Shown piece after piece: positions 6,902 through 57,181 of a stretch of 64,000 nt of DNA. The stretch comes from Patescibacteria group bacterium. Lineage in GTDB: Bacteria > Patescibacteriota > Patescibacteriia > UBA1558 > GWA2-36-10. Where the stretch lies: NCBI GenBank assembly GCA_041665505.1, contig JBAYIR010000002.1, positions 11,602-75,601 of the forward strand, given 5' to 3'. The translations under genes were made by a program, and so were the position numbers. Below the pieces are notes generated by a model. The model ran no database searches and had not been told where the DNA came from. It saw only the letters and a list, made by a program, of their open reading frames with translations. How positions within the stretch are numbered: position 1 is the stretch's first letter; each line of letters begins with the position of its first letter.

Positions 6902-7531
6902 TTATTTTAAATCAAATTCTTTTACAAATTCAACAGCCGCACCATTATCCCCTATCTTATGTAAGACCAATTTATCAACCATAAATGTTTTTATATTCCA
7001 TTTCAAATTGCTTATTATATTTTTAGCTTCTTCAACGTCTTCCAAACGTATCAAAGATAAATGCGGATGACAATAATGATTCATGACGTAGGGATAAGCA
7101 TACTGGCTGACCATTTCCATTTCTTGCCTACTCAAGCGTTCTGCATATTCTATACTAGCAAACTTAGGATTTATATAACCTTCTCTTAGTGGATTTAATA
7201 TTTCTACTATATTTTTATGTAATATTTTTATTTCTGGGCTGAGTTCAAAATAGACCATTACATATCCGTGACGAGATTCTATTTTAGAATATGTCATCTG
7301 AATCAAATCAATATTCTTAACAAATTTCTCTACATTAGCTATAATCTTTGGCAGATTTTTGGCTGGATAGCTGGGAGGATAAATTGTAATGTGAGGATAA
7401 AAATTTTTAGCATCAAGAACAAACTTGGCTTTATATTTTGTAGCCAATTCTTGACTCATAGCCACAGCTTTATCAGATACTACTGGTGGAACCTGAAATG
7501 ATAGCCCAAGTCTTATATATTTTTCTTCCAT
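6902..7531 (-). CDS. 2H phosphoesterase superfamily protein (LigT / 2'-5' RNA ligase-like)
   Basis: Two H-x-T/S-x motifs (HITIY and HLSLI) with the spacing typical of 2H enzymes. Confidence 0.5.
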   Translation of the reverse strand: MEEKYIRLGLSFQVPPVVSDKAVAMSQELATKYKAKFVLDAKNFYPHITIYPPSYPAKNLPKIIANVEKFVKNIDLIQMTYSKIESRHGYVMVYFELSPEIKILHKNIVEILNPLREGYINPKFASIEYAERLSRQEMEMVSQYAYPYVMNHYCHPHLSLIRLEDVEEAKNIISNLKWNIKTFMVDKLVLHKIGDNGAAVEFVKEFDLK

Positions 7532-7545
7532 GATTTTATTTTATC

Positions 7546-9477
7546 TTATTTATTTTGTAAGGAATCTATAAACAAACCCGGCAAAACTTTTTTTATTCTG
7601 CTTGCAAATTCTCTAGCATCTTTCAAAAATAAATCAAATTTAGGATTAGCTTTGATATTTTCATATATCATTACCTGTAATTCATCATTATAAGAAATAA
7701 AATCATGACAATGATAATCATCCATCTGGAGACCATCAAGATAAGCTTTTAATACTTCAGCAAATTTGAAATATGGATTTGCTTGAAAAATTTTCCATAA
7801 AGTCTCAATTTCACTCATGTCAGCTTTACTACCTAAATCTTTATATCTTTCCCCTATTATATCTAAAAGTGCTGGAGGTATTTCAGGTACAGTGTCTTCT
7901 TTACTAAGCATATGCACAATTCGCGTACTAAAAAATAAATTTTCTTCATCGCTAATTTTTTTATGCTTTGCTTCTACTCCAATCTGTAAACCCATTCTTG
8001 CCAACTCATCATCATTAAAATTATTTAAATCAAGTACCTGCCCAAATTTTTCTCTGGCAGCTGAAATATAATATGTTCGTTGACCTGGGTGTAATGAATC
8101 AACAGAAGCAGCCTCTAGCTTACTTTGACTTAATCTCTCCATTTTTAATAAATAATAAGATAAAACGTGTTTTATTTGTTCTCCTCTATTTGGAGCATCT
8201 GGCGGTATATCAAAAGCTATCTTATTTATAATGGGTTCCATACGTGTCAGAGTATAATCCAAACCTTCAATATTACCTGTATCAAGATCTCTTTTTGCCC
8301 AAGTCGTATCAACAATTGTAGCATTTGCCTTAGTCTCTGAAATACTAACAAAAGTATTCCAAGCATGACCTGGTGTAGCACTTTTCAGTACATCTCTATC
8401 CTCACGCCTCGGTTCATGTGTCTTGGTAGCAGTGTCATATAAACAATAAGTATCTCGTAATCTATTATATTTTGTTTGTTTGGCCTTCAAAGCCTCAAAT
8501 ACAGCTTTGGTCATACTAGCAAAATTTCTACAGACTCCATTTCCTTCCCATGCTTGATTACCTCTATTCAACAATCCTTCTTCTAATAAAGTTAAAGCAC
8601 TACTTTGATCTGCTTTAGTTTCTCTCTTAGGATCTAAATGCTGGGTGCCAGTTGTTTCAATGACATCACTATGTTTATATTTTGTAAATTCAACTACTAT
8701 TCTAGTTGCTAACTCAGCTGCCTGCCTAGGGCTAAGTGAATCCAAATGTTTAATCCCTAGTTCCTCTGCAATTTTCTGACCTTCTCTTTCTAGATATGAA
8801 GAAACAAAAGCAAAAATTTTATCTTCCCAACCATCTTCAATAATAGTTTTTTGATAAGTAGCTGCCCCCAAACTCTCTCCAGCTATTTTATCTCTCTTAA
8901 GTATATATTTTTGTATAGCTGGCGGTATTTCTCTAGCCTCTTTAGCTGGTGCTACATTTGGCCTAAAATTATCAAAATCTGAAAAAGCGATTTGTTCGGA
9001 ATCGCTAACCTGCAATTCTACAATAGGATCCTTTGTCAGGCTAGAATCATCTTCTAACATCCTCAAATAAAATTCTTTAGCCTGCTCCCAAGAAGGAAAA
9101 ACCTTTTTGGAAGTTCCTACATAATGTCCTGTTCCTAAATCTTTTAAACCAGGAAAAGTTACTACAAATTGACCACCTTCTTCATCTGCATCGATTCTAT
9201 AAAAATGTTTTGTATAACTCTTTTCTAGGGAAATTCTTTCATATCTCTCCTGCCAATCTTTTCTTGATGCTTCTATAGCCGTTTCTGCCTCCTCTCTGGT
9301 CTCAAATTGTAATAATGAAGTACCAACTATATGGCCTGTTTTAAGATCGTAAAATCCTGGCATAGCAACATCAAAACTACCATCGTTATTAGCTTCAATG
9401 TCATAAAGATGTGAAGATTTTTTTGGTCGTTTTGTCTGTTCTCCACTATCTATATTTTCTTGTACTTCGGCGCTCAT
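7546..9477 (-). CDS. Transglutaminase-like (papain-fold Cys-His-Asp) domain protein with a duplicated N-terminal ~50-aa domain
   Basis: GVCRNFA and PGHAWNTFV motifs resemble the transglutaminase-like core GxCxxFA and HAW. The N-terminus holds two homologous modules (YDIEANNDGSFDVAMPGFYDLKTGHIVGTS / YRIDADEEGGQFVVTFPGLKDLGTGHYVGTS). Confidence 0.45.
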   Translation of the reverse strand: MSAEVQENIDSGEQTKRPKKSSHLYDIEANNDGSFDVAMPGFYDLKTGHIVGTSLLQFETREEAETAIEASRKDWQERYERISLEKSYTKHFYRIDADEEGGQFVVTFPGLKDLGTGHYVGTSKKVFPSWEQAKEFYLRMLEDDSSLTKDPIVELQVSDSEQIAFSDFDNFRPNVAPAKEAREIPPAIQKYILKRDKIAGESLGAATYQKTIIEDGWEDKIFAFVSSYLEREGQKIAEELGIKHLDSLSPRQAAELATRIVVEFTKYKHSDVIETTGTQHLDPKRETKADQSSALTLLEEGLLNRGNQAWEGNGVCRNFASMTKAVFEALKAKQTKYNRLRDTYCLYDTATKTHEPRREDRDVLKSATPGHAWNTFVSISETKANATIVDTTWAKRDLDTGNIEGLDYTLTRMEPIINKIAFDIPPDAPNRGEQIKHVLSYYLLKMERLSQSKLEAASVDSLHPGQRTYYISAAREKFGQVLDLNNFNDDELARMGLQIGVEAKHKKISDEENLFFSTRIVHMLSKEDTVPEIPPALLDIIGERYKDLGSKADMSEIETLWKIFQANPYFKFAEVLKAYLDGLQMDDYHCHDFISYNDELQVMIYENIKANPKFDLFLKDAREFASRIKKVLPGLFIDSLQNK

Positions 9478-9898: not shown

Positions 9899-11134
9899 AT
9901 GCATATAGCAATAATTGGTGGTGGCGCAGCTGGTATGATGGCAGCGGCTACTATAGCTGAAAACAATCCAAAAGCAAAGATTTCTTTGATTGAGAGAAAT
10001 GACTCACTGGGTAAAAAAGTTATTATCTCTGGTGGTGGCAGATGTAATGTCACAACTGGTATTGAAGATATTAAAATTGTCTTGGAAAAATATCCTCGCG
10101 GTAGTAAATTCTTAAACTCCGCTATGCACCGTTTTCCGCCAGCCCTTGTAAAAAATTGGTTTGAAGAGCACGGTGTGCCTCTAAAGTGTGAAGATGATAT
10201 GCGAGTTTTTCCAGTCTCCAATCAAGGTAAAGATATAGTCAAAGTTTTTGAAAAAATATTAGCTAAGAGTAAAAATCAAATACTATTTAAACACTCTGTC
10301 ACAAAAATTGAAAAAAAAGATAAGCAATTCATTATTCATTTTAAAGAACAAAAAGCTCTAAGTGCCGACAAAGTGATTTTGACTTTAGGCGGACAAGCTT
10401 ATAGACAGACTGGCTCAACTGGTGATGGCTACACTTTAGCTGAAAGTCTTGGACACCATATAAGTAATTTAGCTCCTAGCTTGAGCTCACTGGTCACCAA
10501 AGAGACTTGGCCTAGCGCTGTCTCTGGCTTATCATTTGTAAACAGCCAATTCAAAGCCCAAGGTGAAAAAAAATATGAATTTAGTGGGCCTTTTGTTTTT
10601 ACCCATTGGGGTATCAGTGGCCCAGCAGTTTTTGCTCTATCATCTCTGATTGCTTTTGAAAAGTTTAGCGCTGAAAAACCACTAAAAATTTATTTGGATC
10701 TCCTGCCCGATTTATCACTGGATAAAGTCCTTGAAAAAATAAAAAACTTTACTTTATCTGAACCTAAAAAAATATTCAAATACGCTATTCATCAAGCCAT
10801 ACCATTGTCTTTAGCTAGTGTCGCTTTAAAACAATTGGCTATTAGTGAAAAAAAGAAAAATAGCGAAATCAGCAAAGCCGAATTACAAAGAGTGAGCTCT
10901 TGGCTAAAAAATCTACCATTGACTATAGTCAATCGTCGAGCTGGAGACGAATTTGTCACCGCCGGTGGTGTATCTTTGACTGAGGTTAATCCTAGCACTA
11001 TGCAATCAAAAGTTTGCCCAAATCTATATTTTGCTGGGGAGATACTAGATATTGATGGCTATACTGGTGGTTTTAATTTACAAGCAGCCTGGGCTACTGG
11101 TCGCTTGGCTGGCATGGCTAGTAGTGTAAAGTAG
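9899..11134 (+). CDS. HI0933-family NAD(P)/FAD-dependent oxidoreductase (BaiN/YhiN-like flavoprotein)
   Basis: N-terminal IAIIGGGAAGMMAA dinucleotide-binding motif; GGGRCNVTT; C-terminal FAGEILDIDGYTGGFNLQAAWATG. Confidence 0.8.
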   Translation: MHIAIIGGGAAGMMAAATIAENNPKAKISLIERNDSLGKKVIISGGGRCNVTTGIEDIKIVLEKYPRGSKFLNSAMHRFPPALVKNWFEEHGVPLKCEDDMRVFPVSNQGKDIVKVFEKILAKSKNQILFKHSVTKIEKKDKQFIIHFKEQKALSADKVILTLGGQAYRQTGSTGDGYTLAESLGHHISNLAPSLSSLVTKETWPSAVSGLSFVNSQFKAQGEKKYEFSGPFVFTHWGISGPAVFALSSLIAFEKFSAEKPLKIYLDLLPDLSLDKVLEKIKNFTLSEPKKIFKYAIHQAIPLSLASVALKQLAISEKKKNSEISKAELQRVSSWLKNLPLTIVNRRAGDEFVTAGGVSLTEVNPSTMQSKVCPNLYFAGEILDIDGYTGGFNLQAAWATGRLAGMASSVK

Positions 11135-11156: not shown

Positions 11157-11186
11157 TAAAAACCGGTCTTAGTAGATCGGTTTTTT
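11157..11186. terminator. Bidirectional terminator, second copy of the AAAAACCGGTC...GATCGGTTTTTT hairpin
   Basis: Same stem as at 5888-5917 with a different loop; lies between convergent genes. Confidence 0.5.
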
Positions 11187-11189
11187 GTT

Positions 11190-11684
11190 TTATAGCTTAG
11201 TTATAATCTCTAATCTTATTACACTTTCCAAATCCTCTTCTCCGTGTTTTATATGGACAATACTTAAGTTAGATTTTTTTATTATCTCATTTACAAAATT
11301 ATCTCTTTTTATTCTGCCGGCTTTTTGATGCGTCCATCCATCATATTCTATAGCTAGTACTGGCTCTAAATATTGTTTTTTAAAAATTACAAAATCTATT
11401 GTTTTTCTATTAATCTTATTTTGATAATACCAAAATCTATTCTTATCCCTAACATTCAAAATACTACTAATCACTATCTGCGGATAACAGACATATTCTG
11501 GGGGTAATAAAGTTTGTAAAATTTCAAAAAAATGCCTTTCTGGAATATTTAAAAGATATTCTTTTTTAAAATAATTATTATCGTCTTCTTTGTTAGCTTC
11601 TTCAAATTTTTCTTTTGTGCTAGCGGCTTTAATAGCTACTCCTATTATCCAAATTACTAACAATAATAAAATGATTTTTGTCAT
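11190..11684 (-). CDS. DUF2726 domain protein (PD-(D/E)xK / Vsr-like endonuclease fold) with an N-terminal TM anchor
   Basis: IDFVIFKKQYLEPVLAIEYDGWTHQ matches the DUF2726/DUF559-type D...E.DG..H core. Confidence 0.55.
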   Translation of the reverse strand: MTKIILLLLVIWIIGVAIKAASTKEKFEEANKEDDNNYFKKEYLLNIPERHFFEILQTLLPPEYVCYPQIVISSILNVRDKNRFWYYQNKINRKTIDFVIFKKQYLEPVLAIEYDGWTHQKAGRIKRDNFVNEIIKKSNLSIVHIKHGEEDLESVIRLEIITKL

Positions 11685-11790
11685 ACTTTTTTATTATGTC
11701 TCATTTTTTAATGATCTATAGGCCAACTTCTTCTCTACTATTTTTTAATCTATTTTTACTTATAACGACATAATAAAAAAGTATATAAAA

Positions 11791-12525
11791 CTAGGGTATA
11801 TAATTAATTATCTCCTTATAAAAATATCCATAACTATCCACTTTTCCTCTACCGGCAAGATCTATATAATCTTCTTTTGTTATATTACCAACAATCTTAT
11901 TACAGATATCTCGATCCTTATTATAATTAACGCCTACTGAAGCTAATATCCTTTTAACTTCATTAGCTGGCTTATTACATTGTTTTTCAGCATCAATATT
12001 TTCTAGATCTAAACCAAATTTTGTCTTTATATGATCCACTGTTAATTTTTTATTTATCTTCTCAAAAAAATTATAAAGTCCTAGAAACCAAGACTCTATT
12101 TCCATGACAGCAAAAAATATTTTTACCTTTTTTTTATATTTAAGGGTCGCTATATTATTTTTGTTGGTGAGCAACATTTCTTCTATAGCACTTTTTTTAT
12201 CCATCCTACTAGTTAAAATATTATATTCTTCAGAATACATATCTCTTAAACCTAAGATATTATTGAAACCATTATTTATTAAATTCTCTCCCCTATTTTT
12301 AATAGCAGCAAACACTTTTTTATCACCACCTACATCCATTATTTGAAAAAGAATATCTACTCTGTCATTATCATTATGAGACCATGGTACTGATTTTGAA
12401 ACTCCACTACTAAGAAGTTCTATGCATCTTATCCCTATTTTATCATTAGGCATTACCTTAAGTAAAAGATCTCTAACAAAAATCAATTCCGTTTGCCCCT
12501 CCACAAAAATAGCTATCTTTTTCAT
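11791..12525 (-). CDS. DUF4276 family protein (TOPRIM-like, OLD-nuclease-like partner of the upstream ATPase)
   Basis: N-terminal KIAIFVEGQTELIFV (TOPRIM-type Glu), IMDVGGD (DxD-like) and a C-terminal EIESW motif; 9-nt gap from the upstream ATPase. Confidence 0.55.
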   Translation of the reverse strand: MKKIAIFVEGQTELIFVRDLLLKVMPNDKIGIRCIELLSSGVSKSVPWSHNDNDRVDILFQIMDVGGDKKVFAAIKNRGENLINNGFNNILGLRDMYSEEYNILTSRMDKKSAIEEMLLTNKNNIATLKYKKKVKIFFAVMEIESWFLGLYNFFEKINKKLTVDHIKTKFGLDLENIDAEKQCNKPANEVKRILASVGVNYNKDRDICNKIVGNITKEDYIDLAGRGKVDSYGYFYKEIINYIP

Positions 12526-12534
12526 CTATGTGCA

Positions 12535-13629
12535 CTATTTATTTATAAAATTGGAGGTAAATAAATCTAGATTACTTAATCCTGAAGAATAAAACTTATC
12601 AAACTCTTCTTTATTTTTTTTATAATTATATGATTTCGTAATACTACCAACTCTATATATTATGTTCCAATATTTAACTTCAACGCTATTTATCAAAAAA
12701 TAATCATTAGAAGTAAAAATAAAATTAAACTTATATTTATCTACTTTATCAAATAAGAGTTTTAATAATTTAGACGACCTATCATAATCTAACCCCTCTG
12801 AGAGGTTATCAACTAAAAATAATTCCTCGCTAATATTATTTTGTACCATATATTGCACATAAATGATCAAAGCTAAGGCTCTATACATTCCATCGGATAA
12901 ATATTCTTGAGAAATTGGATGTTCTAATCCCTTTTCCTTCACGAATAAAAACTTAAACTCCCTTGGAATTCCTGGCAAAAATTCAGAATACATACTCTCT
13001 AAATCATATCCTAATTTGTTAAAATCTTTCACAACTTCTTTTATGGATTTTGGATTGAGCTCATTCACAATACTTGGAACAATATTTAAACTATCGAGCC
13101 TATTATTCTGTGGTAATATTATAGTTTTAGCACTAGTGTTACCAAAGTCTAAGCCATGTGTGCCTTCTGCCCAATTAATAAGTTCCTCAAGAAACGGATA
13201 CTCTTTCTCATCCCTTCTGACTTGTATTGTAAGTTTATCTACTGGAGGATTTATATCTACTTCATTACCACCAACTATTTTTATCCTAGCCTTATTCTTT
13301 GATCTAATAAGTAATGGCTCTTTATTAATATATAATTCCTCTTTATCTATCTTCCCATCCTTTATATGTAAATTATATTTAAAAATTTTGTCTTTCTCCA
13401 AAATAAATTCTGCAAACCACTCATTATCTTTAATTTTATTATAAGTGAATTCACCTCTAATAATTTTGGCCAGATTATTTATAATATTAATAATTCTAGT
13501 TTTACCACTAGCATTTTTGCCTACTAATAAAATTTTATCCCCTAATTGGAGCTCTTCTAGCTCCCAAACATTTTTCTCTTTTGAAAAATATAAGTTTTCC
13601 TTAAAACTTAATGTTTTTAATTTCATCAT
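12535..13629 (-). CDS. ABC/AAA_21-type ATPase (SMC/OLD-like), first gene of a two-gene ATPase plus TOPRIM module
   Basis: Walker A VGKNASGKT; ABC signature-like LSDGMYRALALI; Walker B-like LFLVDNLSEGLD. Confidence 0.65.
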   Translation of the reverse strand: MMKLKTLSFKENLYFSKEKNVWELEELQLGDKILLVGKNASGKTRIINIINNLAKIIRGEFTYNKIKDNEWFAEFILEKDKIFKYNLHIKDGKIDKEELYINKEPLLIRSKNKARIKIVGGNEVDINPPVDKLTIQVRRDEKEYPFLEELINWAEGTHGLDFGNTSAKTIILPQNNRLDSLNIVPSIVNELNPKSIKEVVKDFNKLGYDLESMYSEFLPGIPREFKFLFVKEKGLEHPISQEYLSDGMYRALALIIYVQYMVQNNISEELFLVDNLSEGLDYDRSSKLLKLLFDKVDKYKFNFIFTSNDYFLINSVEVKYWNIIYRVGSITKSYNYKKNKEEFDKFYSSGLSNLDLFTSNFINK

Positions 13630-13724
13630 ATTATTATATTATAACAAGTATACAAAAATATACAAACTATTTAATATATTAAACAATAATTTTTCTAATA
13701 CGTCAATAAATTAACCTAAATCCT

Positions 13725-13753
13725 TGACATTTCCCCCAAAATATAGTATTATC
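13725..13753 (+). promoter_or_regulatory. Sigma-70-type promoter for typA (TTGACA-17nt-TATTAT)
   Basis: Perfect -35 (13725-13730), 17-nt spacer and -10 TATTAT (13748-13753). The predicted TSS is about 7 nt downstream, which coincides with the typA ATG at 13760. Confidence 0.5.
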
Positions 13754-13759
13754 TGCTTT

Positions 13760-18257: not shown

Positions 18258-19490
18258 ATGCTTTATGATCTGATAGTTATTGGTGGCGGACCAGCTGGTA
18301 TGATGGCAGCTGGAGTAGCAGCTGAAAAAGGCGCTAGTGTCTTGCTACTGGAAAAAAATGACCGACTAGGCATCAAATTACTCATTACTGGTAAAGGTAG
18401 ATGTAATATCACTAATGCCGATTTTGATAATAAAAAACTAATAGATATTTTCGGCAAAAATGGCCGTTTTTTATTTTCCGCCTTAAACAAATTTGGTAAT
18501 CAAGATATTATTGATTTTTTTAATAGTAGAGGTCTAGCTACTAAAATAGAAAGAGGCAATCGCGTTTTCCCACAAGCTGATTCCTCTCTGGATGTCTTGG
18601 CCGTTTTGAAAAATTATCTAGCTGAAGGCCATGTCAAAATACAAACTAGAGTGCAAATCAAATCTATCGTCAAAAAAAATAATCTAATCAGTAAGATTAT
18701 ATTAGCTGATCAGAGTGAGCTACAAGCCAAAAAATATATTATTGCTACTGGTGGAAAATCATACCCTATGACTGGCTCTAGTGGTGACGGCTACATTTGG
18801 CTCAAAAATTTGGGTCACACTATAGTTACTCCTATGCCAGCGCTAAGCCCTATACTAATCAAAGAAAAATTGGTCAAAGACTTAGAAGGCTTAAGTCTTA
18901 AAAATGTTAGTATTAGTATCTATCAAAATAATAAAAAAATAGACTCCCGTTTTGGTGAAGCACTTTTTACCAATGATGGTATGAGTGGGCCAATAATCAT
19001 AGATATGAGCAAAAATATCGGCTTAGCACTAAAACAAGGAGCTGTCCGACTAGAGATTGATTACAAAGCAAGTTTAGATTTTAAAACTTTGGATAAGCGC
19101 CTACAAAATGATTTTGCCAAGTCCAACAACAAACTATTTAGAAACAGTCTGAGTGACTTATTACCTGCTAAGCTAATTCCCTTAATTATCAGACTCTCGG
19201 CTATAAATCCTGAGAAAAAAGCCAATGCTATCACCAAAGATGAAAGAAAAAAATTAATCCATCTTCTAAAAAATTTTGAATTAAATGTCAAAGCTTTATA
19301 TGGTTTTAATAAAGCTATAGTCACCGCCGGTGGAGTCAGTCTCAAAGAAGTAGATCCTCAAACTATGCAATCTAAAATAATAAAAAACCTCTACCTAGTA
19401 GGCGAGATTTTGGATTTAGATGGACCAACTGGTGGCTACAATCTACAAGCTTGCTGGAGTACAGGATATTTAGCTGGCCAAAGTATCTAA
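18258..19490 (+). CDS. HI0933-family NAD(P)/FAD-dependent oxidoreductase (paralog of 9899..11134)
   Basis: LIVIGGGPAGMMAAG, GKGRCNITN; C-terminal VGEILDLDGPTGGYNLQACWSTG; colinear with the other paralog. Confidence 0.8.
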   Translation: MLYDLIVIGGGPAGMMAAGVAAEKGASVLLLEKNDRLGIKLLITGKGRCNITNADFDNKKLIDIFGKNGRFLFSALNKFGNQDIIDFFNSRGLATKIERGNRVFPQADSSLDVLAVLKNYLAEGHVKIQTRVQIKSIVKKNNLISKIILADQSELQAKKYIIATGGKSYPMTGSSGDGYIWLKNLGHTIVTPMPALSPILIKEKLVKDLEGLSLKNVSISIYQNNKKIDSRFGEALFTNDGMSGPIIIDMSKNIGLALKQGAVRLEIDYKASLDFKTLDKRLQNDFAKSNNKLFRNSLSDLLPAKLIPLIIRLSAINPEKKANAITKDERKKLIHLLKNFELNVKALYGFNKAIVTAGGVSLKEVDPQTMQSKIIKNLYLVGEILDLDGPTGGYNLQACWSTGYLAGQSI

Positions 19491-31074: not shown

Positions 31075-34000
31075 TTAACCTTCTATTTCTGTTATGTATT
31101 GCCCATAAATCCAGCCACTGATTTTATCATCGACTATAACCTTATACCAATTATAGCTATCATCAGCCACACTCTGTTTTTCTACAGCCTCAAATTTATC
31201 ACCACTATTCACTTGCGTCAAGATTTTAGCACTCTTACTGGGATTTTCTCGTAGATTCAACCAACCAGTTGGCGTATCTTTAACGATCAAATAAATAACT
31301 ACTACCTCCTCCACTCCTGTACTAGTGGCAGTACTAGAACTATTTCCTCCATCAGAAAATGATAAATCAATTAACTCATTATCTATATTCCCCGAAATAA
31401 CAAAATCATCAACTGCTTCATTAGTGACTAAATCGTTGACATTAGTAACTATAGCTTTATTATCGCTAGTAGCTATTATTTTATTTTTCAAAATCATTAT
31501 TTGTGACCTTAACAGATAAGCACTAAAGACTGCCAATATAATAATTAAGACTAACCAAACTATCTTACGATTTATTTTCTGCCAAATAAATTTGGTAAAA
31601 TTAACGTTTATTTTTTCTTCTATAGCTTCTATAGCTAATTTACTCACTTTCTTTTTAGCTCTAGTAGATTTTTTTGCTTTTGCCCCACTAGAAGCTACCA
31701 GTGGTTTTGGTTCGCCGGCAATAACTGCCATATTGCTCTGCAAAGCTAACTGACCATTGGCAATATTTATCTGATGTCGCCACATGGAGAAAAGTATAGT
31801 GACTAGTAGTGCGAAGCCAGTGACAAAAGCAATGATTATACCCCAAACTGAAACTGCTTGCATACCACCAAAGGCACCCAAAAATCCTTGAGAAGCATCA
31901 GCTTGTGTAACCAAAGCTTTTAATTCTTCTAAATCTTTGTTGACGGCACTTAAACTTTCTTTGTTCTCCCGATAAGTCATTATTTTATCTTGAGGCGAGG
32001 CAGTATTTTCTTTTTGGGTACGCAAAATCTTTTCTACTCTTTCATCAACGTCATTTTTTAGTAAAAGAGCTTGGGAAGAATATTGATTTTTTTGTAATTT
32101 TTTATAAAAATCACCAGCTTGAGCTTGAGCTAAACTCAAATCATTTTCCGCTATGAGCCAAATGTCACGCATCTTGATAAATTTTTTGACTGACTCACCT
32201 GGTTTAAGTTCAATTTCACCACTAGCAAATAATGTGTCCAATTGAATATCATACTGTATATTGAAACCGCCATCATCTATAATATGCTCAGTCTTGGCCT
32301 CTTTTGGTAAATAAATCTTAAACGGCACTTTTTGGGTAATTAAAGCTGGATTGGATATCATGATATTTAAATCGACTGATCCTGATGTATACCAAGTACT
32401 GACTATTGGTGAAGCAGTCTCTTGCACTACTTGTCTTTGGACATTAGCGACAGTTTTAAAATCAGCTATCTTATTACGGACATATTTGACATCATCCATA
32501 TTTTCTCTAGATACTGATAAAATGGTGTCTAAGGTATCATTATCTAGCCGTCCCAATTTTGTATTAATACTACTTATGGAACTAGAAATAGTACCCATAG
32601 CACTAAACATTTCTTCTGGCTTAAGATTATAAACATTAGTATGATTAGTAGTGCTACTGCCTGAGCCGACTTCAATATCATTAATACTTGTTTCTAAACT
32701 AGCAATACTAGCTTCAATATTATCTAATTGCGTTTTAATCAAAGCAATATCTTCCTTAATTAAAGTTACATCATCTTTTATACCAGCTACGTCTGATTGA
32801 ATGGTGTTTATTTTAGTGACTGGTACAGCTAGCTGTTTTAATATTGTAAAAGCATCACCGTTATTTGGCGCAAAAGGCAAATCTGGTTCTAGAATAATAG
32901 CTTTGGTCGTACCATTATAATCATCTATCCGCCTAGCCACTCCGCTATTTTGACCAGAAGTAAATGTCAATAAGGCATGAGTATACAAATCATCAACTGT
33001 ACTGGCTAAGTTACTTCCTAATAATGAAAGCGTGGAGGCAATCTCAGCTGTACTGACAGTAGATCGTATAGCAATCAAATCATCCGATAATAAATCAATT
33101 GTATTTTGTAAGGTGCTAATACCACTACTCAATGTCGTCTCAGTAGATTGTAAATTTGAAAGAGTGGCTAATGATCCACTATCCAAATTGGCACCTGATA
33201 AATAGCGTCCACTATAAGCCCAAACTGAGGCAGCATCTAAAGTAGCCGCATTTGAAGTTTGTGCTAAAATTGTAAAAGTATCAGCATCAGTCGGAGCTAA
33301 AGATAAAGCTGGATCAACTGTAATAGCCTTGGTCGTACCATTGTAAGCAGTGATACGTCTGACTTGGCCAACATTCATACCCGAGGTAAATAATAAAATA
33401 TTATTTTTATAAAAATCATTAGTAGCATTGGTCAGAGCAGTAGCAAAAACTGTAGTAGAAGGAGATAAATCAGCCACTGCCGTCTCCGCTACAATCAAAG
33501 CACTAATAATTTTGTCTAATTTAGCACTATTAGCACTAATAGCATTAGATAAAACTGTTTCCGTGGCTTGAATGTCTGATAAAGTAGCTAGTGACCCAGT
33601 GTCCAAAGTAGCTCCTGATAAATAACGGCTACCATAAGACCAAATAGCCGCTGCATCCACTGCTGAATTAGCTGTTTGGGCTAAAATAGTAAAGGTATCG
33701 GCATTGCTTGGAGCACTAGCTAAGGCTGGCGAAACAGTGATTTGTTTATTGGATCCAACATAGTCTGTAATACGACGAGCCTGGCCTGCATTAACGCCAG
33801 AAGTAAAGACTAAAACTCCATTGTTATAAAAATCATTAGAAGTACTAGTTAGAGTAGTAATAAATTGTGTATCACTTGCACCAGCATCATTAACAGCTTT
33901 TTGAGCAACAATTAAATTATTTATCAAAGTATCCAGCTGAGCACTCAAAGTAGTTTCAGTGCTTTCGATGTCTGATAAAGTAGCTAGTGACCCAGTGTCC

Positions 34001-37000
34001 AAAGTAGCTCCCGATAAATAACGACTACCATAAGACCAAATAGCTGCTGGATCTAAAGAAGCATTAGCCGTAGCTGCTAAAATTGTAAAAGTATCACCAT
34101 TAGCTGGCGCGGAATTTAAAGCTGGGTTGAGTGTTAGTTGTTTGGTAGCCCCAACATAATCAGTAATACGTCTGACTTGACCCGCATTAGCACCAGAGGT
34201 AAAGACTAAAACTCCATCATTATAAAAATCATCACTAGCACTAGCTAAAGTACTAATAAATTGAGTATTAGAAGCTCCAACATCATTGACCGCTTTTTCA
34301 GCAATAATTAAAGTAGCTATAAATTGATCTAAAGTGGCTTGTAAAGCCGCTAGATCACTAGCTGAGGCGCGAGAAGAAATAGTAACGTCAATATTAGTTT
34401 TTAATAAGGTGCCAATACTATCAACAGCTGTTATAGAAGTAAGTAGTGTATCCCATACCCTCTGAGCTGTCACATCACCGGCTGTCAACTCACGACTAGA
34501 ATAAGCCCAAACCGAAGCCGCTAAAGATGCTAGACCGTCATTTTCAATATCAGTAATTGTCCTAGTGGCTGCTGACCAGACATCAGTGGCTGTCAAATTA
34601 CTAATACCACGTGAAGATATAGTAGCATCTAAATTATCAGCTATTAATTTACCGATTGACCCATTTTGTGACAAGAGAGCTGAAGCTACATCCCATACTT
34701 GTGTCGGATCATCTAAGCTTACTCCTCCGGTCAAAGTGCGGACACCATATTCCCAAACTTGTTGGGCTGACAGGTTATTTAAAGCGGCAATAGCTTCATA
34801 ATTTTGTTGAATGCGTCCAAATAAAGTATCAGCACTGGATAAATCAGAAGGTGAACCCACTAAGGTTTCTAGGGTATCAACGTAACCCTCCATCTGATCA
34901 ACATAAGCTAATACTGACTGTAAATCTTGATAAGCTGAAGTCGATTGTCCATTGTAGCCTAATTCTGTTTGGACAGAATTTATCTTATTATAGGCGTCAT
35001 CAGCTTTGTTGAAAATAGCATCAGCTGTTTGAGTACCCCATTTTTCTTGTAAAAATTTACTGCGGCCAAACAAAGTATTGGCACTGGATAAATCTGTATG
35101 TTCACCAATTCTAGTCTGGACAGTAGTCAAAGACGAAATAATATCAGCCGCACTATAGGCTCCCCAATTAGCCACAATATCATCTACTTGAGTTCTAATA
35201 TATTGAGTATCTGTATAAATATCATCCACCTTAGCCTTTATATAAGTCACATCAGCTTGCAAGGTGGCAATCTCCGCACTAGTGGCCAGTGCTCCACCGC
35301 CTGACAAAGTAGCACTAGTCAGTTTTCTATCTACATATTCCCAGACTGCTTGAGCAATTTCTGCAGCTGAAGCTCCACCACCACTAGAGCTGACGTTGGA
35401 ATATTGGCTTAATACCACGAACTCATCATTAAAAGCTGGGGCAAATGGTAAAGCTGCATCTACTGTAATGGCTTTAGTAGTACCATTATAACTAGAAATA
35501 CGACGAGAAATACCAGCATTTTGACCAGACATCATAACCACAGTTTGATTCTGATAAAAGTTTGATGTCGCTTCAGTCAAATCAGTCACAAAAGTAGTAG
35601 CTGTAGCTGCCACATCGCTGACTAAACCTCTTTTGACAGCCAAACGATCATTGAGCAACTGACCAAAAGATCCATCAATATCAGCAAATGAACCAACTTG
35701 AGCTCCCCAAATACTAGAAGCTGTGAGTCCTGTAGACAACCAAGGTGAGACTGGCTGACCAGAAGAGAAAAAGTCTAGAGTACCAGTATCTACTGTGCCT
35801 GACAAAACAGAAACGTCATCTAAATAAACAAAAGGTCGTCTGAAAAGCTGATAGTCACCAGCAGTAGCATTGACCATGGTCGTGCTCTTTAAATGTGGTG
35901 CTACTATACCTTTTAAAAATAATATAGTTGGCGTATTTTTTACTACCTCAAAAATACGACCGTAAGTATCTTTAAATAAATAGCCAACCCATTGATTGGG
36001 TGTCCAAGATTTATCTACATCTTCCACCCATGGTGGTAAATAATTACCTAATGGATTAAATATCACTTCACTACTACCCTCATCTTCCACTACAAAAGAT
36101 GACTGCGCGGATATAGTCAAATCTGCCAAAGCAGATTCTGTTGGTGTACCAGAAACTACAAACTGTTGCCATTCATTAGCTGTGTCGGCAGCAGTCCAAG
36201 TCAAATTAGCACCAGTCATACCAAGACCTGACAAAGTAACTGTTGGTAAATTACTGGATCCATAATAACTATTAACTCGAATATAGCCCGTGACCGCTAG
36301 TGGCTCATTGGCCACACCAATAACTTTGGCTGAATATTCCAAAGGCACATCTGCACTTTGCGACTCCATACGCCAAGCATAACCACCAGGTGTATGCACG
36401 GTAGTGTCAATTAGACCAGCACCAGTAGTACGCATATTACCAAAAGTACTTTGATTGACTATATCTCTGGTACTACTAGAATAATTCATACGAATATCAG
36501 TACCTGGTATAGTACTAGCCATATAAGTATCCCCCAAACGAGACATATTATTATAATCTTGGGTGCCAAAAAATACTGGGCTCAAAATCTGCGTATCCAC
36601 ACCAGTAAACTGTAATAATGATTCTGCTTCAAAAGTTACAGTATTTGGTGGCATACTAATATCTGCTTCATTCCACATACCACGTCCAAAAATACTACCA
36701 TTATCAGTCACTGATACAGAAGAATAAGAAGGATGCGAACGGATACCTGAACCATATTCAGCACCAACTGTCACTGAACCATCAGAAACATGCCCATCAA
36801 AGGTATTATCAGACATATTAACAAAAGCATTACCATGCAAACGAATACCATTGGTATTTAAAGAAAATTTATTATCATTAATAGTGACCTTGGCAACGCC
36901 GACACCAAAGTTTAGTGCTCCAGATGTTCCAGCACCAGTCACACCATTATTATAAAATTCAGAATTAGCTACAGTATATAAACGACCAGACACAAAGGTC

Positions 37001-40000
37001 GCCGCACCACCGGCTGCTGCTGGCGGGGCAGTTACATAGGCATTACGATGACCCATGAAAATACTACCGTCAATACCAACATTTTGACTAGTAAAAGCGT
37101 TATAACCAGCGCCAATATTGGCTGCTCCCACATGAGTAGTCACAAAGTAAGCACCAACCATATTTGAGCCCTGAGTTTTAGCTATGACAGTATAAGCTCT
37201 GTCAAAATAGTTATAAAAAACTGATTTAGAAATTGTCTGTGTTGGGTATGGTGTTACCGAGGTATAAGGATTAGTAGTCACAGCAAAATTATTATACTGA
37301 TTTTCCATTGACAGATGATTCAAATTCATACTGGCTAGCCCGGCTAGACCCACTGCTGATACACCAAAACCAATTCCTTGATTTACCATATTAGCTGCTG
37401 CCAAAGTTGCACCAGTGTAAGAAATATCTTCATCTGACCAAATATGCGTACTGCGCTTGAGATTCAAAACTGGTGAATAAGTCGGACTAGAGCTGGAATC
37501 CCTAGCTGCTTTATGATGATAAGTAAAATTGTGTGACCAACCAGCTAAAGTGGCCGCTGTTCCATTTTCCTCATGACCAGAACCATATTTGATACGAGCC
37601 GAAGGAGTATATTTTTCTCCAGTATTATCTACCCAAACACGAGTGCGCTCTGGATAAGTAATTACCCTAATTCTTTCATTACCAGTATCAGCACCATTGG
37701 TAAAAATCATATTAGGACTACCCCAGGCATAATCAGCCCAAACCCAACCCTCTTGGGGATTCATAGCGCTGTCAAAACTAGCTCGATAAATATTTGTGCC
37801 AATACTGGAGCCACAACCAGCTGTTGCTCCTCCAGTCCAAATAGTTGCCGGTACTGTAAAATTACCAAAATTACAAGCATCAGAAGTATCTACTTCATAA
37901 TCAAAAATATTAAACTCATCAATCGCTCCATCAAAAGCGCCATTGTACTGCCAATTATTACCAAGTCTAATTAAACCAGCATTAGCACCACGGGCCGCTA
38001 AAGTCGTACCTTGGTTAGTTTCAAAAGCTACACCATCAAGCCAAGCTCGTTTAAAAGCCGTGGCTGTTTCTCGCCAAGCTACCCGTAAATGATGCCACTC
38101 GCCAGCCGTAGCTGAGAAGGTCTGCTGTAAGACAGTGCCTTGTACTGCACCAGCATAAATAGCTACCTCTAATTTACCATTAGTATTATGTCTGACAAAC
38201 AAACGATCCGTATCACCTTGGTTAGCGTAGTCAAGTAAATATTGACCATAAGGACTAGTGGAAGTTGCCGGTGAACCAGTATAATTAGTTTTAAACCAAA
38301 GATCTATTGTGCCATGTTGCCTAGCTGTAGCTGTGCCACTCTGACCTTCTATATTATAACGAGTGGCAATCGGACTACCAGTTGTCGCCCAAGTAGGTGG
38401 CATTAAAACTGCACTACCCATACCATTGACGCCAGTCCAAGCGCCATTATTTCTCAAATAATTATTTTGTAAAAGCAACATCCGATCACCAAACTTGGTG
38501 GCTGTTGGGTTACCAGAGTTTATACGCAAAGAAATTTTACTATCTGGTGCAGTATAAGTTGTACCTGGTGTAGCTGTACCAGCTGCACCTGTGGTACTGC
38601 CTGTGACTGTATAATTACTATTAGTCGGGTTCCACTCAAAATCCCAAACTTCATATTTAGTATTAGCATCACTAGTTGTAATACCTATACTATTATCTAA
38701 ACCCTTATAGCTCTTAATAGCGGTAGAGCTAATATAAATTTTATCTCCCACTTCAGGTCTGACTGTGCCATTCCAACCACCTTTATGTTTAATAGTAAAA
38801 TTTAAATAAGAACTAGTGAAAGGCACACTGGGATAAGCATTACCTATTGGTCCAGCACTTGATCCAACTAAACGCCAATAATCAGCATCATCAAAATTAT
38901 CGGCCCAGCCATTACTAGCACTCATAGAATCAAAAATCGCTTTGGTGCCAGCACCACTGGTCGCTGATCCTACATAAACACCTGTTTTACCAGTGGTGTA
39001 AGTAGCATTAGTAGTTGTAAAATCCCAAGAGCCTGGTTCGCCAGAATTGCAATCAGTAGTAGCCCAAAATTTGACACTTAGTGCTGTGCCTGTTACATCA
39101 GCTTTTAGACAATACCAAGTACTATCACTAAAAGCTTTGGTGGTTGGTGTGCCAATTACCGTTGGTACACCAGCTAAAGTAGTATAAAGCCCTACCGTGT
39201 TGGCGGCATTGGTCTTAGTAATTAAAGCAGCATAGCCATTACCATCAATACTCTGTCTCATTAAAAATCCTAAGCGACGTGAAGTAGCATCAGCTGCCAT
39301 ATCCATATAAACTAAGCCCGAAACAGTATAGTCAGTCGTATCTACATTGGTATTTTGAATATTAAGATGAGTCAAGTTTGTCTCATTGATATTCATCTGA
39401 CCATCTTTGATATGCCAAACATAAGGAGCTGACGGCGGCACAATAGCAGCCGCAGAATATTTGTGAGTTTCTATCCAACCTGGTGAATTACCATATTCTA
39501 AAGTAAATGTTTCATTGGGATTATAGCTCAAGCCAGTGGTAATCTGTCCAAGCTTAGCTTCTTGACTACCTGAAGATACATTAAGTACCCCCGAATCAAT
39601 ACGCTCTAGACCACTCATACCAATGGGTGTATTTTGATTAACTGGCGAAGTGGTCCAAGAAGTAAAACCAGAAATTCGCACCCTCACCCAATAGGCATTA
39701 ACTCCATTGATAGTAGTTTTGGCTGGAGTGCCAGTCAAATCATAAGGCGTCCAACTTAAAATGCGACGTGGAGAATTACCATTTTCTGTGAAAAAATTAC
39801 TAGGATTAAATGATTTCCACTGTCCGCCATTGAGACGAGAAATCGTAGCTGACTGAGCTGTAGTATAGTCAGCCGTCACTGGCTCCGTAAAAGTAATAAC
39901 ACCCGCAGCGACCGCACTAATACGCCTATAGATTGGGCTAGAATCATTATCATCTATCATTACTACTTGATCAACGCCAAAGTTGGCTTGATTACCAGAT

Positions 40001-43000
40001 GTCACTGACACAGTATAAGAATTTCTAGTGGTGTTGGCAGATAATGGTACGCTATGTCCTGTACGTGTTTGATATTTATAAGCATCACGCGGTGTAAAAC
40101 TAGTCCAACCAGCCCCATTATAAAACTCCCAAGTGAATAGTGCTGAGGAGTTCATCAGCGTACCCAGATTTGCTTCCAAAGAATACATCATGTTGGTACC
40201 TTGATCACCAAAATATATAGCATCGTTTAACTCAGTATTAGCTCCATCACCAAATAAAGTCCAAGTAGTAGAACTAGCATAATTTGCCGAATACAATGGT
40301 GAACCACCATTGTAATCAGCATTATAAACATTAGTGACTGGTATAGTGCCAATTTCTGCTGTCTCAGTATTTGGTGTTGGCAAAGCATTACGACCCAAGC
40401 CGGCCAGGCCAGTCCAAACTGGGAATTGATTAATATCATCAGTGCCACCCATTCTGACAGAAGACAAATTATTATCTACTACTTGATTGGTAGCACCAGC
40501 TACTGTGATATTATCTAGTGGCTGCCAATTACCCACTACATTGTCTTTGACATCCACCCAAGTAGCTCCAGCATCAGTGGAATTATTACCCAAATAGCCA
40601 GTATCAATATTACCGTCAATATCAACAGCCAAGTCACTTTTCATAGTGCGAAAATCATCACTACCTTGACCATACAGATTGACCCTACCAGTTCTATTGT
40701 TATCTTGCGTGCCGGCATTAGTACCAGTTAGTCCTGTCATAGTATATACTCCTGCTCGCCTATCTGTACCAGTTGGTAATTCTGTCTGTGGACCCTTGGC
40801 AGCATAGGCACCTTGAGCCACTGTATAGCCAGTCACCAAAGCAGCTGTCAAAGTAATAACCGTAGAACTCTCCACTGCTGCTACAATCCTAGTAGTAGCC
40901 ACTGAGTCATTATCATCAATTATGATTGTGTCTCCTGGAGCAAAATTACTAGTGGAAGCTACAGTCAGAGTGACAGTAGCTGGCGAGTCAATAGTTAAAA
41001 GTGAAGAAGCAGCTGGTGAAACATTATCAAAATAAATATCCGCATGTGTAGAAGCTGGTAGTGGATCAGTACTATCACCAAAAGCCAAAGTAGCATCAGA
41101 ATCCAAAACAATTTTACCAGGAATAGTGATACGATAATGTTGATTAGCTGTGTCAGCAATAGTCAATTTTGAACCCGGTGTCACAAGAGCTGATACCCAA
41201 CCACCATTATAAGAATAAGCAGCAAAATTACCTCTAGTTCCAGCACCATCGCCAATAGCTGCACCATAATTACCAGTATAAGCTAGAGCCGCATCCCAAG
41301 AGCGATCAATACTGACTACATGTTGGGCTTTGTTGAGCCAGACATAATCATTGGTCAAATTTGTCGAATCAGCTGTATCAGAATTATTAGCCCCATTACC
41401 AACTATCACAATATCACCATCAGCTGGAGCATCAGTATTGGCATCACCATAAGCTACAAAGAAAATATGTCTATTAGATAAAAAAGGATAATTAGTTAGT
41501 GAGGTTGCTACAGCTTGACTCTTGGCATAAGCCAAAACCACTGAGGTAGTACGAGCTAATTGCGAATTTAAGCCAATTGGATTTTGGGTAAAATTATAAG
41601 AAGTAAAACGCAAAACATCACCATCGCTTGGTGTTCCAACATTAGATAGGTTAGCTGAAATCTCAGCTATTCTAGCCCCCTCAGCCACAGTAAAAGCAGT
41701 AGTTAAATTGGCTGCTAAAATAATAGATGGACCACTGGAAGGACAAGCTCCATCAGAAGCGTTGGTGCTGGCAATACGATGTGTCACAATTGGTGCTGTA
41801 TTATTGTCCCAAATCTGGACACTAGCTGCTGTACCAACTGCTGCTGAAAAACCGTCAATACTAGCTACACAAACACGAGTAGAGACAGCTGAATCAGCAG
41901 TCAAAGTAGTAATAGCACCTTGGACTATTCTATTTTTCCAGATAGCCTGAGCAACTGTGGCATTTTTGCTAGTAGTAAAACCAGTTGTAGTCGCGGCCGT
42001 TGTGACAATAGCTGGACCATTGCTGCAACTAGCATGAGAGTTGGTCACTGAAGCTACGGTCAAAGCCACTGTAGCTGTATCAGCATCCCATAAATTAATA
42101 GTTTGATTAATAGAAAAACCACTAGTTGAAGCTACACATAAAACAGTGCTAGCAGTAGAATCAAGAGTCAGAGTAGTCAAAGGTACACCATCATTAACCC
42201 AAGCAGCGCCCGTGCCACCAGTGGTGGGTGTAGTTAATTTATTTGTTTGCGTACCAGAGACAGTACCGGCTAAAGTCCAATTAGAATTACTAGAAGAATA
42301 AGTAGCTGTCCAATGCTCATTTTGTGTCCTTCTAACCGTTGGTAAACCCACACCAGCAGCTGAATTGGCAGCGACCATAGCAGCCGCTGTCAAGCCATTA
42401 TGTGCAGCTAAAACTTTTGGCATAGTAATAGTTGGTGCATTGACCAAGTCTATATCATTAGCACCAATAGTTCTTATTGTACCATTTACTGTCGGAAAAT
42501 CTCCATAAGGTGCATTAGCTGCCCAAGTACCAAATACTGGTGTACCAGCACCCATATTAATTATTCTAATACCATAATGGGCACCAGAGGTGACTGCTAA
42601 CTCTGGATCAAAACGAAAATCAAAAGTACCACGACCATATTGACCAGGCGCTAGATTTTCACCAGACAAACCCTTATTAAACTGTATAGCTGCTCTTCTC
42701 AAAACAACAGTATCACTCGGATAGGTATAAGCACCTTGGGTGCCAGAGACATAGTTAGAACAAGAAGTAGTACAAGTTGCTGTTGGAAAGCTCAAAAGCT
42801 CGGCTACAATATCCACATTGGATAAAGAAGTGATAGTTAAATTTTCTAAAATCAACTGTACACCACGTAAATTACCACTAGCGCTAGGCTTAAAACCAAT
42901 AAATTGAGCGGCCGCATAAGTAGCGGTTGCACCAACTGCCACATGACCCAAAGCCAAAGCTCCAGCCGCACCATCAGTCACCGATGGTCCGGGATGAATA

Positions 43001-57091: not shown

Positions 57092-57181
57092 TGGCGGAAG
57101 GTGAGGGATTCGAACCCTCGGAGGTTTTGACACCTCACACGCTTTCCAAGCGTGCGCACTAGACCACTATGCGAACCTTCC
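57092..57181 (-). tRNA. tRNA-Ser (anticodon GGA), CCA-encoded, long variable arm
   Basis: Manual fold: acceptor GGAAGGT/ACCTTCC; D-stem GCAT/GTGC; anticodon stem CACGC/GCGTG with loop TTGGAAA; variable stem GAGG/CCTC; T-arm GAGGG-TTCGAAT-CCCTC; discriminator G; CCA. Confidence 0.85.

Follow-up and report, generated by a model that had tools for sequence, protein, structure and literature searches.

The described system closest to the locus analysed here is HEC-01 (PADLOC's 'Hma-embedded candidate 01'), which consists of an ABC ATPase, HEC-01A, and a DUF4276/TOPRIM protein, HEC-01B. In its original test, HEC-01 gave no protection against any phage in E. coli MG1655, and in another study one representative was protective in E. 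coli B. A similar combination, namely an AAA15/21 ABC ATPase and a TOPRIM protein homologous to DUF4276, occurs as Mad3-Mad4 in MADS (PMC12065111; PMC11464382), which is a multi-gene system with a methyltransferase. AbiL (AbiLi and AbiLii) is likewise a two-gene system of the ATPase plus TOPRIM type, while the TOPRIM protein of PARIS, AriB, is of the DUF4435 type and has a size of approximately 35 kDa. In OLD (P2 Old, class 2 OLD) and in GajA, on the other hand, a single polypeptide contains both domains, and in Septu and retron-associated systems the partner of the ATPase PtuA is an HNH nuclease (PtuB).

In the 64,000-nucleotide stretch of Patescibacteria DNA that was analysed (the window), three contiguous minus-strand genes lie between an HI0933-like gene and typA, an arrangement in which the ORF coordinates and Pfam agree with the first-pass annotation. 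The features of the locus are the following:

9899-11134, plus strand: HI0933-like gene (275 bits)
11158-11185, both directions: hairpin terminator, 12-bp stem with A and T runs on either side
11190-11684, minus strand: DUF2726 gene, 164 aa, 106-nt gap from the partner gene
11683-11700 and 11767-11784, minus strand: arms of a perfect 18-nt inverted repeat, 100% complementary
11791-12525, minus strand: DUF4276-type TOPRIM gene (the partner), 244 aa
12526-12534, minus strand: 9-nt spacer from the ATPase stop to the partner start
12535-13629, minus strand: ABC-type ATPase gene, 364 aa (363 aa from the second ATG)
13630-13759: intergenic region separating the divergent ATPase and typA genes (13630-13723 to the first typA start)
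13724/13760-15541, plus strand: typA/bipA

The short spacer between the ATPase and its partner indicates an operon junction. What is more, the three genes have the lowest GC content of all 47 genes in the window (0.261-0.280, compared with a mean of 0.345), which lends extra support to the islet. The claim that the islet is flanked by terminator repeats is correct for one side only: a hairpin terminator does separate the convergent HI0933-like and DUF2726 genes, but terminator prediction gave no such site in the typA-side flank (13630-13723). The divergent region on that side presumably contains the promoter of the cassette; however, promoter-like hexamers do not exceed their frequency in shuffled sequence, and we therefore assign no specific promoter. 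An Rfam scan in and near the islet found no RNA families.

A two-gene module and its relatives

The ATPase and its small TOPRIM-like partner form a genuine, tightly linked two-gene module. In particular, the two genes are found together in all of the 80 best genome loci, in 24 of 25 viral contigs and in both of the closest relatives, i.e. in 106 of 107 related loci overall, so that gene neighbourhood bears out the pairing proposed in the first-pass annotation. The linkage is thus practically obligate. In homologous loci, the two genes mostly overlap by 4 nt or lie 3 nt apart, and the junction falls between -20 and +9 nt in 75 of 78 cases.

The larger protein is indeed AAA_21-like (37.7 bits against the Pfam model, cut-off 27), a putative ATPase of the SMC/Rad50-head-like ABC type that is devoid of a coiled coil. 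The partner scores slightly below threshold against DUF4276 (PF14103; 26.9 bits, cut-off 30.2, E 6.5e-6, profile positions 1-123 of 192) and below the cut-off of 23.2 against OLD-like_TOPRIM (15.3 bits). That said, a precomputed PF14103 match exists for most of its 154 homologues, and the membership of the protein itself in DUF4276 follows by transitive homology, in line with the initial assignment. The pattern KIAIFVEGQTE…MDVGGD…EIESW, on which that assignment was based, is real as regards the motifs FVEGQTE and MEIExW, which hold residues invariant across 28 homologues (E9, G10, E13, E142, E144, W146), but the Asp of 'VGGD' is conserved merely as D/E. The invariant acidic residues are E9, E13, D95, E142 and E144, and the protein displays the features of the OLD-like TOPRIM branch: a three-layer alpha/beta fold in which a Glu follows strand 1 and acidic metal ligands lie further downstream. 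When searched by sequence, PDB chains were uninformative, with no match to the DUF4276 profile at E <= 1 and, for the ATPase, a match confined to a generic P-loop segment in an ABC-F protein; consequently, it is fold comparison alone that ties the two proteins to solved structures, the matches being to OLD, GajA, AriB, PtuA and AriA.

How does the pair compare with the known systems? With HEC-01 it shares the two-gene architecture and gene order, an AAA_21-type ABC ATPase and a small stand-alone DUF4276-type TOPRIM protein with an OLD-like acidic site, the two genes being adjacent and co-oriented at a gap of 9 nt. Among PADLOC families, the partner and its clade match HEC-01B models only. These matches are, however, weak and partial: taken as profile-HMM scores and not as PADLOC's own system call, they amount to 3.5e-6 in two short stretches for HEC-01A and 4.7e-6 over residues 1-40 only for HEC-01B, neither profile being matched confidently and near full length. 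The best score of the clade on HEC-01B is 1.8e-10, as opposed to 4.3e-75 for a canonical HEC-01B encoded by a neighbouring gene. Matches of this kind (E 1e-6 to 1e-10) point to a separate subclade outside the modelled HEC-01 subfamilies. The clade also differs from HEC-01 in that it mostly occurs outside Hachiman and other systems, and the present member in its Patescibacteria host and its D275N substitution in the ATPase.

The remaining systems were set aside on account of the partner protein or of the architecture, the partner models of PARIS, AbiL and OLD failing to match. AbiLi is the best PADLOC profile match of the ATPase (2.4e-18), but it is partial (profile positions 59-279 of 326), and the partner does not match AbiLii. 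Like Mad3-Mad4, the pair combines an ABC ATPase with a DUF4276-type TOPRIM protein; unlike MADS, it has no methyltransferase among its flanking genes (HI0933-like, DUF2726 and typA), and the ATPase matches mad3 at only 1.9e-4 (15.7 bits against NCBIfam MADS3, cut-off 420), with no Mad4 match for the partner. PARIS is excluded in that the partner has no match to DUF4435 (PF14491) at E <= 0.1 in Pfam and none to PADLOC's AriB; the ATPase matches AriA only through a generic AAA_21-like model, and the proteins, at 364 and 244 aa, are smaller. Fused OLD and Gabija are at odds with two ORFs separated by a stop codon and a spacer, with no GajB-like helicase gene adjacent (PADLOC Old, E 0.027), and Septu with the type of partner, a TOPRIM instead of an HNH protein (PtuA, 2.9e-3). 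The architecture was initially described as that of the OLD family, PARIS (AriAB) and AbiL, which is right as to the ATPase/TOPRIM kind and the folds, but HEC-01 is nearer.

The distribution of the pair is very patchy. Identity to its nearest relatives, most of which belong to Bacteroidota and Cyanobacteria, does not exceed 47%; GTDB species representatives contain 196 relatives, and additional ones are on IMG/VR contigs. As anticipated, such modules are rare in CPR bacteria, which contribute 1 of the best 80 genome loci (Saccharibacteria). There is no partner homologue in isolate phage genomes and just one on a plasmid, in Bacteroides finegoldii, so that carriage by mobile elements rests on IMG/VR predictions. 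As a test of HI0933-typA synteny, metagenomes were scanned with the HI0933-like protein, which gave relatives of at most 37% identity, none of them adjoined by typA; a search for exact sequence matches led back to this genome alone, in further assemblies. In the 80 loci of other genomes, the immediate neighbours are mostly housekeeping genes (e.g. catalase and AhpC in Microcoleus, tRNA synthetases, sugar epimerases). As a raw count, roughly a dozen of 143 neighbours have defence-type matches, and some copies do have other defence genes next to them or belong to the accessory region of a prophage; given the predominance of housekeeping neighbours, an enrichment in defence islands is unconvincing and modest at best.

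The ATPase of this copy

The motifs of the ATPase are a Walker A (G37KNASGKT44), a signature (S245DGM) and a Walker B/D-loop (L272VD274N275LSEGLD281), with 'TSND' at the H-loop position. In homologues, the Walker B/D-loop follows the pattern 'IDD.GEGLDY', and the residue equivalent to N275 is Asp in all 104 of them (73 + 31). With three more changes, the protein deviates at 4 of 40 highly conserved columns in total, a level of deviation that places it joint second among 74 sequences. Judging from these residues, it may be a poor ATPase or an inactive one.

Would this copy then be an inactive or decaying remnant, i.e. a transferred cassette that has lost ATPase catalysis through D275N and whose intact ORFs no longer have a defence function? 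The substitutions listed above, as well as the very low GC content, would fit such a history. However, both ORFs are of full length, with no frameshift or internal stop, and the partner deviates at none of its 26 conserved columns. The ATPase retains Walker A, the Ser/Gly of the signature, the D-loop and the Asp of Walker B, and three independent assemblies contain exactly this sequence. What is more, the window sequence is the most distant lineage of the compared set, for which a certain level of deviation is to be expected. Finally, in some ABC-TOPRIM systems, such as Gabija, control is exerted by nucleotide binding instead of hydrolysis, which also counts against a remnant. For these reasons, we consider it unlikely that the copy is decaying.

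The DUF2726 gene and the hairpin before it

The third gene encodes a protein that matches Pfam DUF2726 (PF10881) at 73.8 bits (cut-off 24.7) and has a restriction-endonuclease fold of the Vsr/DUF559-like kind. Its N-terminal hydrophobic helix is conserved in 26 homologues, in agreement with the annotation as a TM-anchored DUF2726 protein, and residues E49, K94, D97, E113, H119, R124, R127 and D128 are invariant across the 26 sequences. The family counts 105 homologues, many of them 50-70% identical, 160-170 aa long and from Patescibacteria. Their neighbours are unrelated, and the ATPase-TOPRIM pair is absent in every context examined; conversely, a DUF2726 gene lies near the pair in none of the 107 other loci. 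This rules it out as a conserved third component. We read the gene as a separate, Patescibacteria-typical one for a membrane-anchored putative nuclease of the restriction fold; it is independent of the pair, although both lie in the AT-rich islet and may be on one transcript.

At the junction between the partner and the DUF2726 gene, the inverted repeat at 11683-11784 would give, in the transcript, a stem of about 19 bp with a minimum free energy of -22 kcal/mol (z -4.2), and none of 200 shuffled sequences is equally stable. Its 5' arm starts 6 nt past the partner stop codon, and its 3' arm spans the last 16 nt upstream of the DUF2726 start codon (AUG) together with the first two bases of that codon. 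The 18-nt repeat has no further exact copies in the window, and no terminator is predicted between the two genes. One could therefore imagine a lineage-specific three-gene system, in which DUF2726 has been recruited, is co-transcribed and is translationally coupled to the TOPRIM gene, ribosomes unmasking a start codon hidden in the 18-bp stem. While the geometry suits such a mechanism, and the genes share strand and AT-rich composition, the hairpin is AU-rich and unique to this locus and could represent a weak terminator or a junction left by recombination. Homologues of DUF2726 do often adjoin restriction-modification or mobile genes (DpnI; an MmeI-type methyltransferase with SNF2/PLD; a resolvase with SNase and a methyltransferase; an integrase), yet they do so in the absence of the pair, and with the zero count over 107 loci a three-gene system looks quite unlikely. 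A more far-reaching combination, namely an imported pair wired to a native DUF2726 that is translated only after ribosomes finish the TOPRIM gene and joined to a hydrolysis-impaired D275N ATPase, would extend ABC-TOPRIM immunity by a third component, and this in a minimal-genome episymbiont; we regard it as very unlikely.

A candidate defence cassette

Our preferred reading, which we hold to be probable, is that the pair is a horizontally acquired, self-contained two-gene cassette, a divergent member of the HEC-01 group with an abortive mechanism based on a TOPRIM nuclease, and that DUF2726 is separate from it. In architecture, the cassette is related to MADS Mad3-Mad4, PARIS, AbiL and OLD/Gabija. 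The mechanism is built by analogy with PARIS and OLD, from which we infer complex formation, trigger, substrate and defence phenotype alike. We propose that the ATPase is the sensor or regulator subunit and the partner a metal-dependent nuclease effector. Namely, an oligomer of the co-translated ATPase would keep the nuclease inactive; upon sensing a phage-derived cue, its nucleotide state would change, and the nuclease would be released or activated. Through a metal site made of E9, D95, E142 and E144, the latter would then cleave host or phage nucleic acid, be it tRNA (as AriB and P2 OLD do) or DNA (as GajA does), and the infection would abort.

It should still be noted that several observations go against this reading, i.e. 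the negative original test of HEC-01, the weak PADLOC matches, the mostly housekeeping neighbours and N275 in the ATPase. The first of these would also suit a selfish, toxin-antitoxin-like addiction cassette, which would persist because the TOPRIM nuclease is set free once the ATPase is lost, and which would bring no anti-phage benefit, as would a compact mobile two-gene unit of such patchy occurrence, inserted among housekeeping genes. However, the studied structural relatives of the same architecture are anti-phage systems, one HEC-01 representative is protective, and some copies adjoin defence genes or lie in prophage accessory regions, so that pure addiction strikes us as a doubtful account, to be given little weight. 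Addiction and defence roles are not mutually exclusive. Finally, a role in housekeeping DNA repair, with the two proteins as counterparts of the ABC ATPase RecF and the TOPRIM protein RecR, is most improbable.

The finding holds up, but it is a fairly ordinary one. The candidate defence group of ABC ATPases paired with DUF4276/TOPRIM proteins gains a member from Patescibacteria as well as a distinct, widespread subclade. Current PADLOC models detect this subclade weakly, and the linkage statistics and invariant residues given here could seed better ones. The same residues offer targets for mutagenesis, namely E9, E13, D95, E142 and E144 of the nuclease and the 'IDD.GEGLDY' Walker B/D-loop of the ATPase. 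Set apart from the pair, the CPR-typical membrane-anchored DUF2726 family merits a study of its own, for instance in relation to DNA scavenging or restriction. As for CPR biology, the pair represents another small imported conflict module inside a reduced genome.

Layout, composition and surroundings of the islet

The three minus-strand open reading frames lie at exactly the positions given in the first-pass annotation. The sequence belongs to a Patescibacteria MAG, and the islet genes were recovered again in two further assemblies. The region is laid out as follows.

Features of the islet and its flanks
9899-11134, plus strand: HI0933-like flavoprotein gene, flanking the islet
11158-11185: terminator-like hairpin between the convergent HI0933 and DUF2726 genes
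11190-11684, minus strand: DUF2726 gene, 164 aa, separated from the TOPRIM gene by 106 nt
11683-11784, minus strand: perfect 18-nt inverted repeat (arms 11767-11784 and 11683-11700) filling the 106-nt spacer
11791-12525, minus strand: TOPRIM partner gene, 244 aa, starting 9 nt past the ATPase stop
12535-13629, minus strand: ABC-type ATPase gene, 364 aa
13724/13760-15541, plus strand: typA/bipA, the other flank

In Pfam searches, the ATPase matches AAA_21 with 37.7 bits (cut-off 27) and the third protein matches DUF2726 with 73.8 bits; the match of the partner to DUF4276 (26.9 bits, E 6.5e-6) is just under the cut-off of 30.2, and its OLD-like_TOPRIM match is sub-threshold. The GC contents of the three islet genes (0.261-0.280) are the lowest three among the 47 genes of the window (mean 0.345, s.d. 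0.039), which speaks for an islet that differs in composition from its surroundings. As for the earlier statement that the islet is flanked by terminator repeats, the single hairpin at 11158-11185 bears it out on the convergent side; on the ATPase/typA side, a divergent intergenic region, terminator prediction found none.

The spacer between the TOPRIM and DUF2726 genes is occupied by an inverted repeat unique to this locus, which as RNA would form a stem of approximately 19 bp (MFE -22 kcal/mol, z -4.2). Its 5' arm starts 6 nt past the TOPRIM stop codon, and its 3' arm runs through the 16 nt ahead of the DUF2726 start codon (AUG) into that codon's first two bases. Such a geometry would suit translational coupling of DUF2726 by ribosome-mediated unmasking, and the hairpin may in this sense act as a coupling or occlusion element; it could equally be a recombination scar or a weak terminator.

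Several other features of the window deserve mention. Two HI0933-like paralogues (9899-11134 and 18258-19490, both plus strand), approximately 36% identical and 7 kb apart, bracket the islet/typA region. A 643-aa protein (7546-9477, minus strand), encoded directly upstream of a 2',5'-RNA-ligase-family gene (6902-7531), contains an internally duplicated motif, '...DADEEGG/ANNDGSF.V..PG..DL.TGH.VGTS...', and has no Pfam match at E <= 0.1. A giant ORF (31075-43926, minus strand; 4283 aa) has a GC content of 0.40-0.42, above its surroundings. Its Pfam matches are Phage_BR0599 (weak, in several repeated segments), Laminin_G_3 and, at the C terminus, SH3_3; they point to a very large surface or adhesion protein, a type frequently met in CPR genomes. 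Finally, a single tRNA gene (57095-57181, minus strand) is the only Rfam match at the gathering threshold in the 64-kb window.

An obligate ATPase-TOPRIM pair and a free-standing DUF2726 gene

Scanning one genome per GTDB species yielded 196 relatives of the partner, and 80 loci were retained. An ATPase homologue (28-40% identity) lies directly upstream on the same strand in all 80; the genes are likewise linked in 24 of 25 IMG/VR contigs (in the remaining one, the contig ends within the locus) and in the two closest ATPase relatives. The two genes are an obligate pair, and the earlier reading was right about them. In most cases they overlap by 4 nt or are 3 nt apart, and this near-universally tight junction suggests translational coupling. 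The analysis also establishes the folds, the conserved acidic residues and a patchy distribution of the pair. Bacteroidota and Cyanobacteria make up most of the hosts, joined by Planctomycetota, Desulfobacterota, a Pseudomonas and one Saccharibacteria MAG. In filamentous cyanobacteria (Microcoleus/Oscillatoriales; loci L046-L064 and related), the context of the pair is constant, with catalase or AhpC/Redoxin genes upstream (8 loci each) and, in about a dozen loci, a 136-aa ORF in the same orientation 64-73 nt downstream, which could be a lineage-specific third gene.

The distribution is also partly mobile, as indicated by the one contig examined (L102) among approximately 18 pair-carrying IMG/VR contigs (L102-L123) that match the query equally well (all at 35% identity to it). 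In L102, the genes around the pair encode an Ant anti-repressor, ParB-like and PAPS-reductase-like proteins, a pyrophosphatase and a DNA methyltransferase, a setting that resembles an accessory region in a temperate element, which probably belongs to Bacteroides. ATPase homologues occur on hundreds of Bacteroides contigs.

The third gene had been proposed as a member of the same module, a proposal that the evidence does not support: no DUF2726 homologue lies near the pair in any of these loci, and the neighbours of DUF2726 homologues differ in each case examined, so that it is not a conserved third subunit. The protein has many homologues of the same length (50-70% identity) in Patescibacteria, among them Kuenen-, Magasanik-, Morani- and Buchananbacteria, which share an N-terminal hydrophobic helix and invariant E49, K94, D97, E113, H119, R124, R127 and D128. 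One shares an island with genes for an MmeI-type methyltransferase and an SNF2/PLD protein, one adjoins an integrase, another adjoins DpnI, one belongs to a block with PIN-TPR (PIN-TPR-GreABC protein), resolvase, SNase and N6/N4 methyltransferase genes, and one is found among plain housekeeping genes; the MmeI-type, DpnI and PIN-TPR-GreABC contexts are those of loci L083 (Logan SRR13355620 contig), L085 and L097. There are thus hints that this small membrane-anchored nuclease family is itself tied to restriction-modification (RM) or mobile islands, and DUF2726 is a native, free-standing CPR gene, often in such company.

In the window ATPase, residue 275, directly after the Walker B Asp, is Asn (codon AAC, 12805-12807), while Asp occupies this position in 73/73 locus-derived and 31/31 database homologues (104 in total). 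Canonical ABC ATPases carry the catalytic Glu here. A single G-to-A change would explain N275; further departures at highly conserved columns are Q302N, M313I and F354L, giving four at 40 such columns (median 0), and the partner has none at 26 conserved columns. Judging from these substitutions, ATP hydrolysis may be impaired in this copy, which would then be either a functional variant or a gene in early decay.

Relation to known systems and possible function

Among known systems, PARIS is ruled out because the partner is not DUF4435/AriB, and AbiL because it has no AbiLii match. The lack of a methyltransferase, with no more than a trace of similarity to mad3, excludes MADS. Two separate genes and no adjacent helicase exclude fused OLD and Gabija, and a partner other than an HNH nuclease excludes Septu. 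In PADLOC, the partner and 26 of 28 aligned relatives match HEC-01B models only. [quoted passage not shown] However, the HEC-01B matches of our clade are weak and partial (best score 1.8e-10), whereas a canonical HEC-01B beside one related locus scores 4e-75, which argues for a divergent sister clade that shares the HEC-01 architecture and is not represented by the models.

Experiments on HEC-01 have given mixed results: it did not protect MG1655 against the phage panel used (bioRxiv 10.1101/2024.01.29.577857), but a representative from a cold seep conferred protection on E. coli B against one or more of T4, T5 and T7. The neighbourhood evidence for a defence role is modest. In particular, most immediate neighbours of the pair in other genomes are housekeeping genes, and, as a raw count, about a dozen of 143 are of defence type (mad3-like ATPases, AriAB, PtuB, HEC-01B, Type IIG RM, DrmD, SoFic). 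By analogy with PARIS and OLD (PMC11464382; PMC12409363; bioRxiv 10.64898/2026.07.10.737580), from which we infer complex formation, trigger, substrate and phenotype, an ATPase oligomer would bind and restrain the TOPRIM nuclease; upon sensing a phage cue, the ATPase would change its nucleotide state and free or activate the nuclease, which would then cut tRNA or DNA and abort the infection.

Only three things are unusual in the islet: its occurrence in a CPR genome, the D275N substitution and the hairpin that links the pair to DUF2726. The description that best suits the pair is a horizontally acquired candidate defence cassette of a divergent, HEC-01-like type, and its clade possibly deserves a subfamily model of its own.
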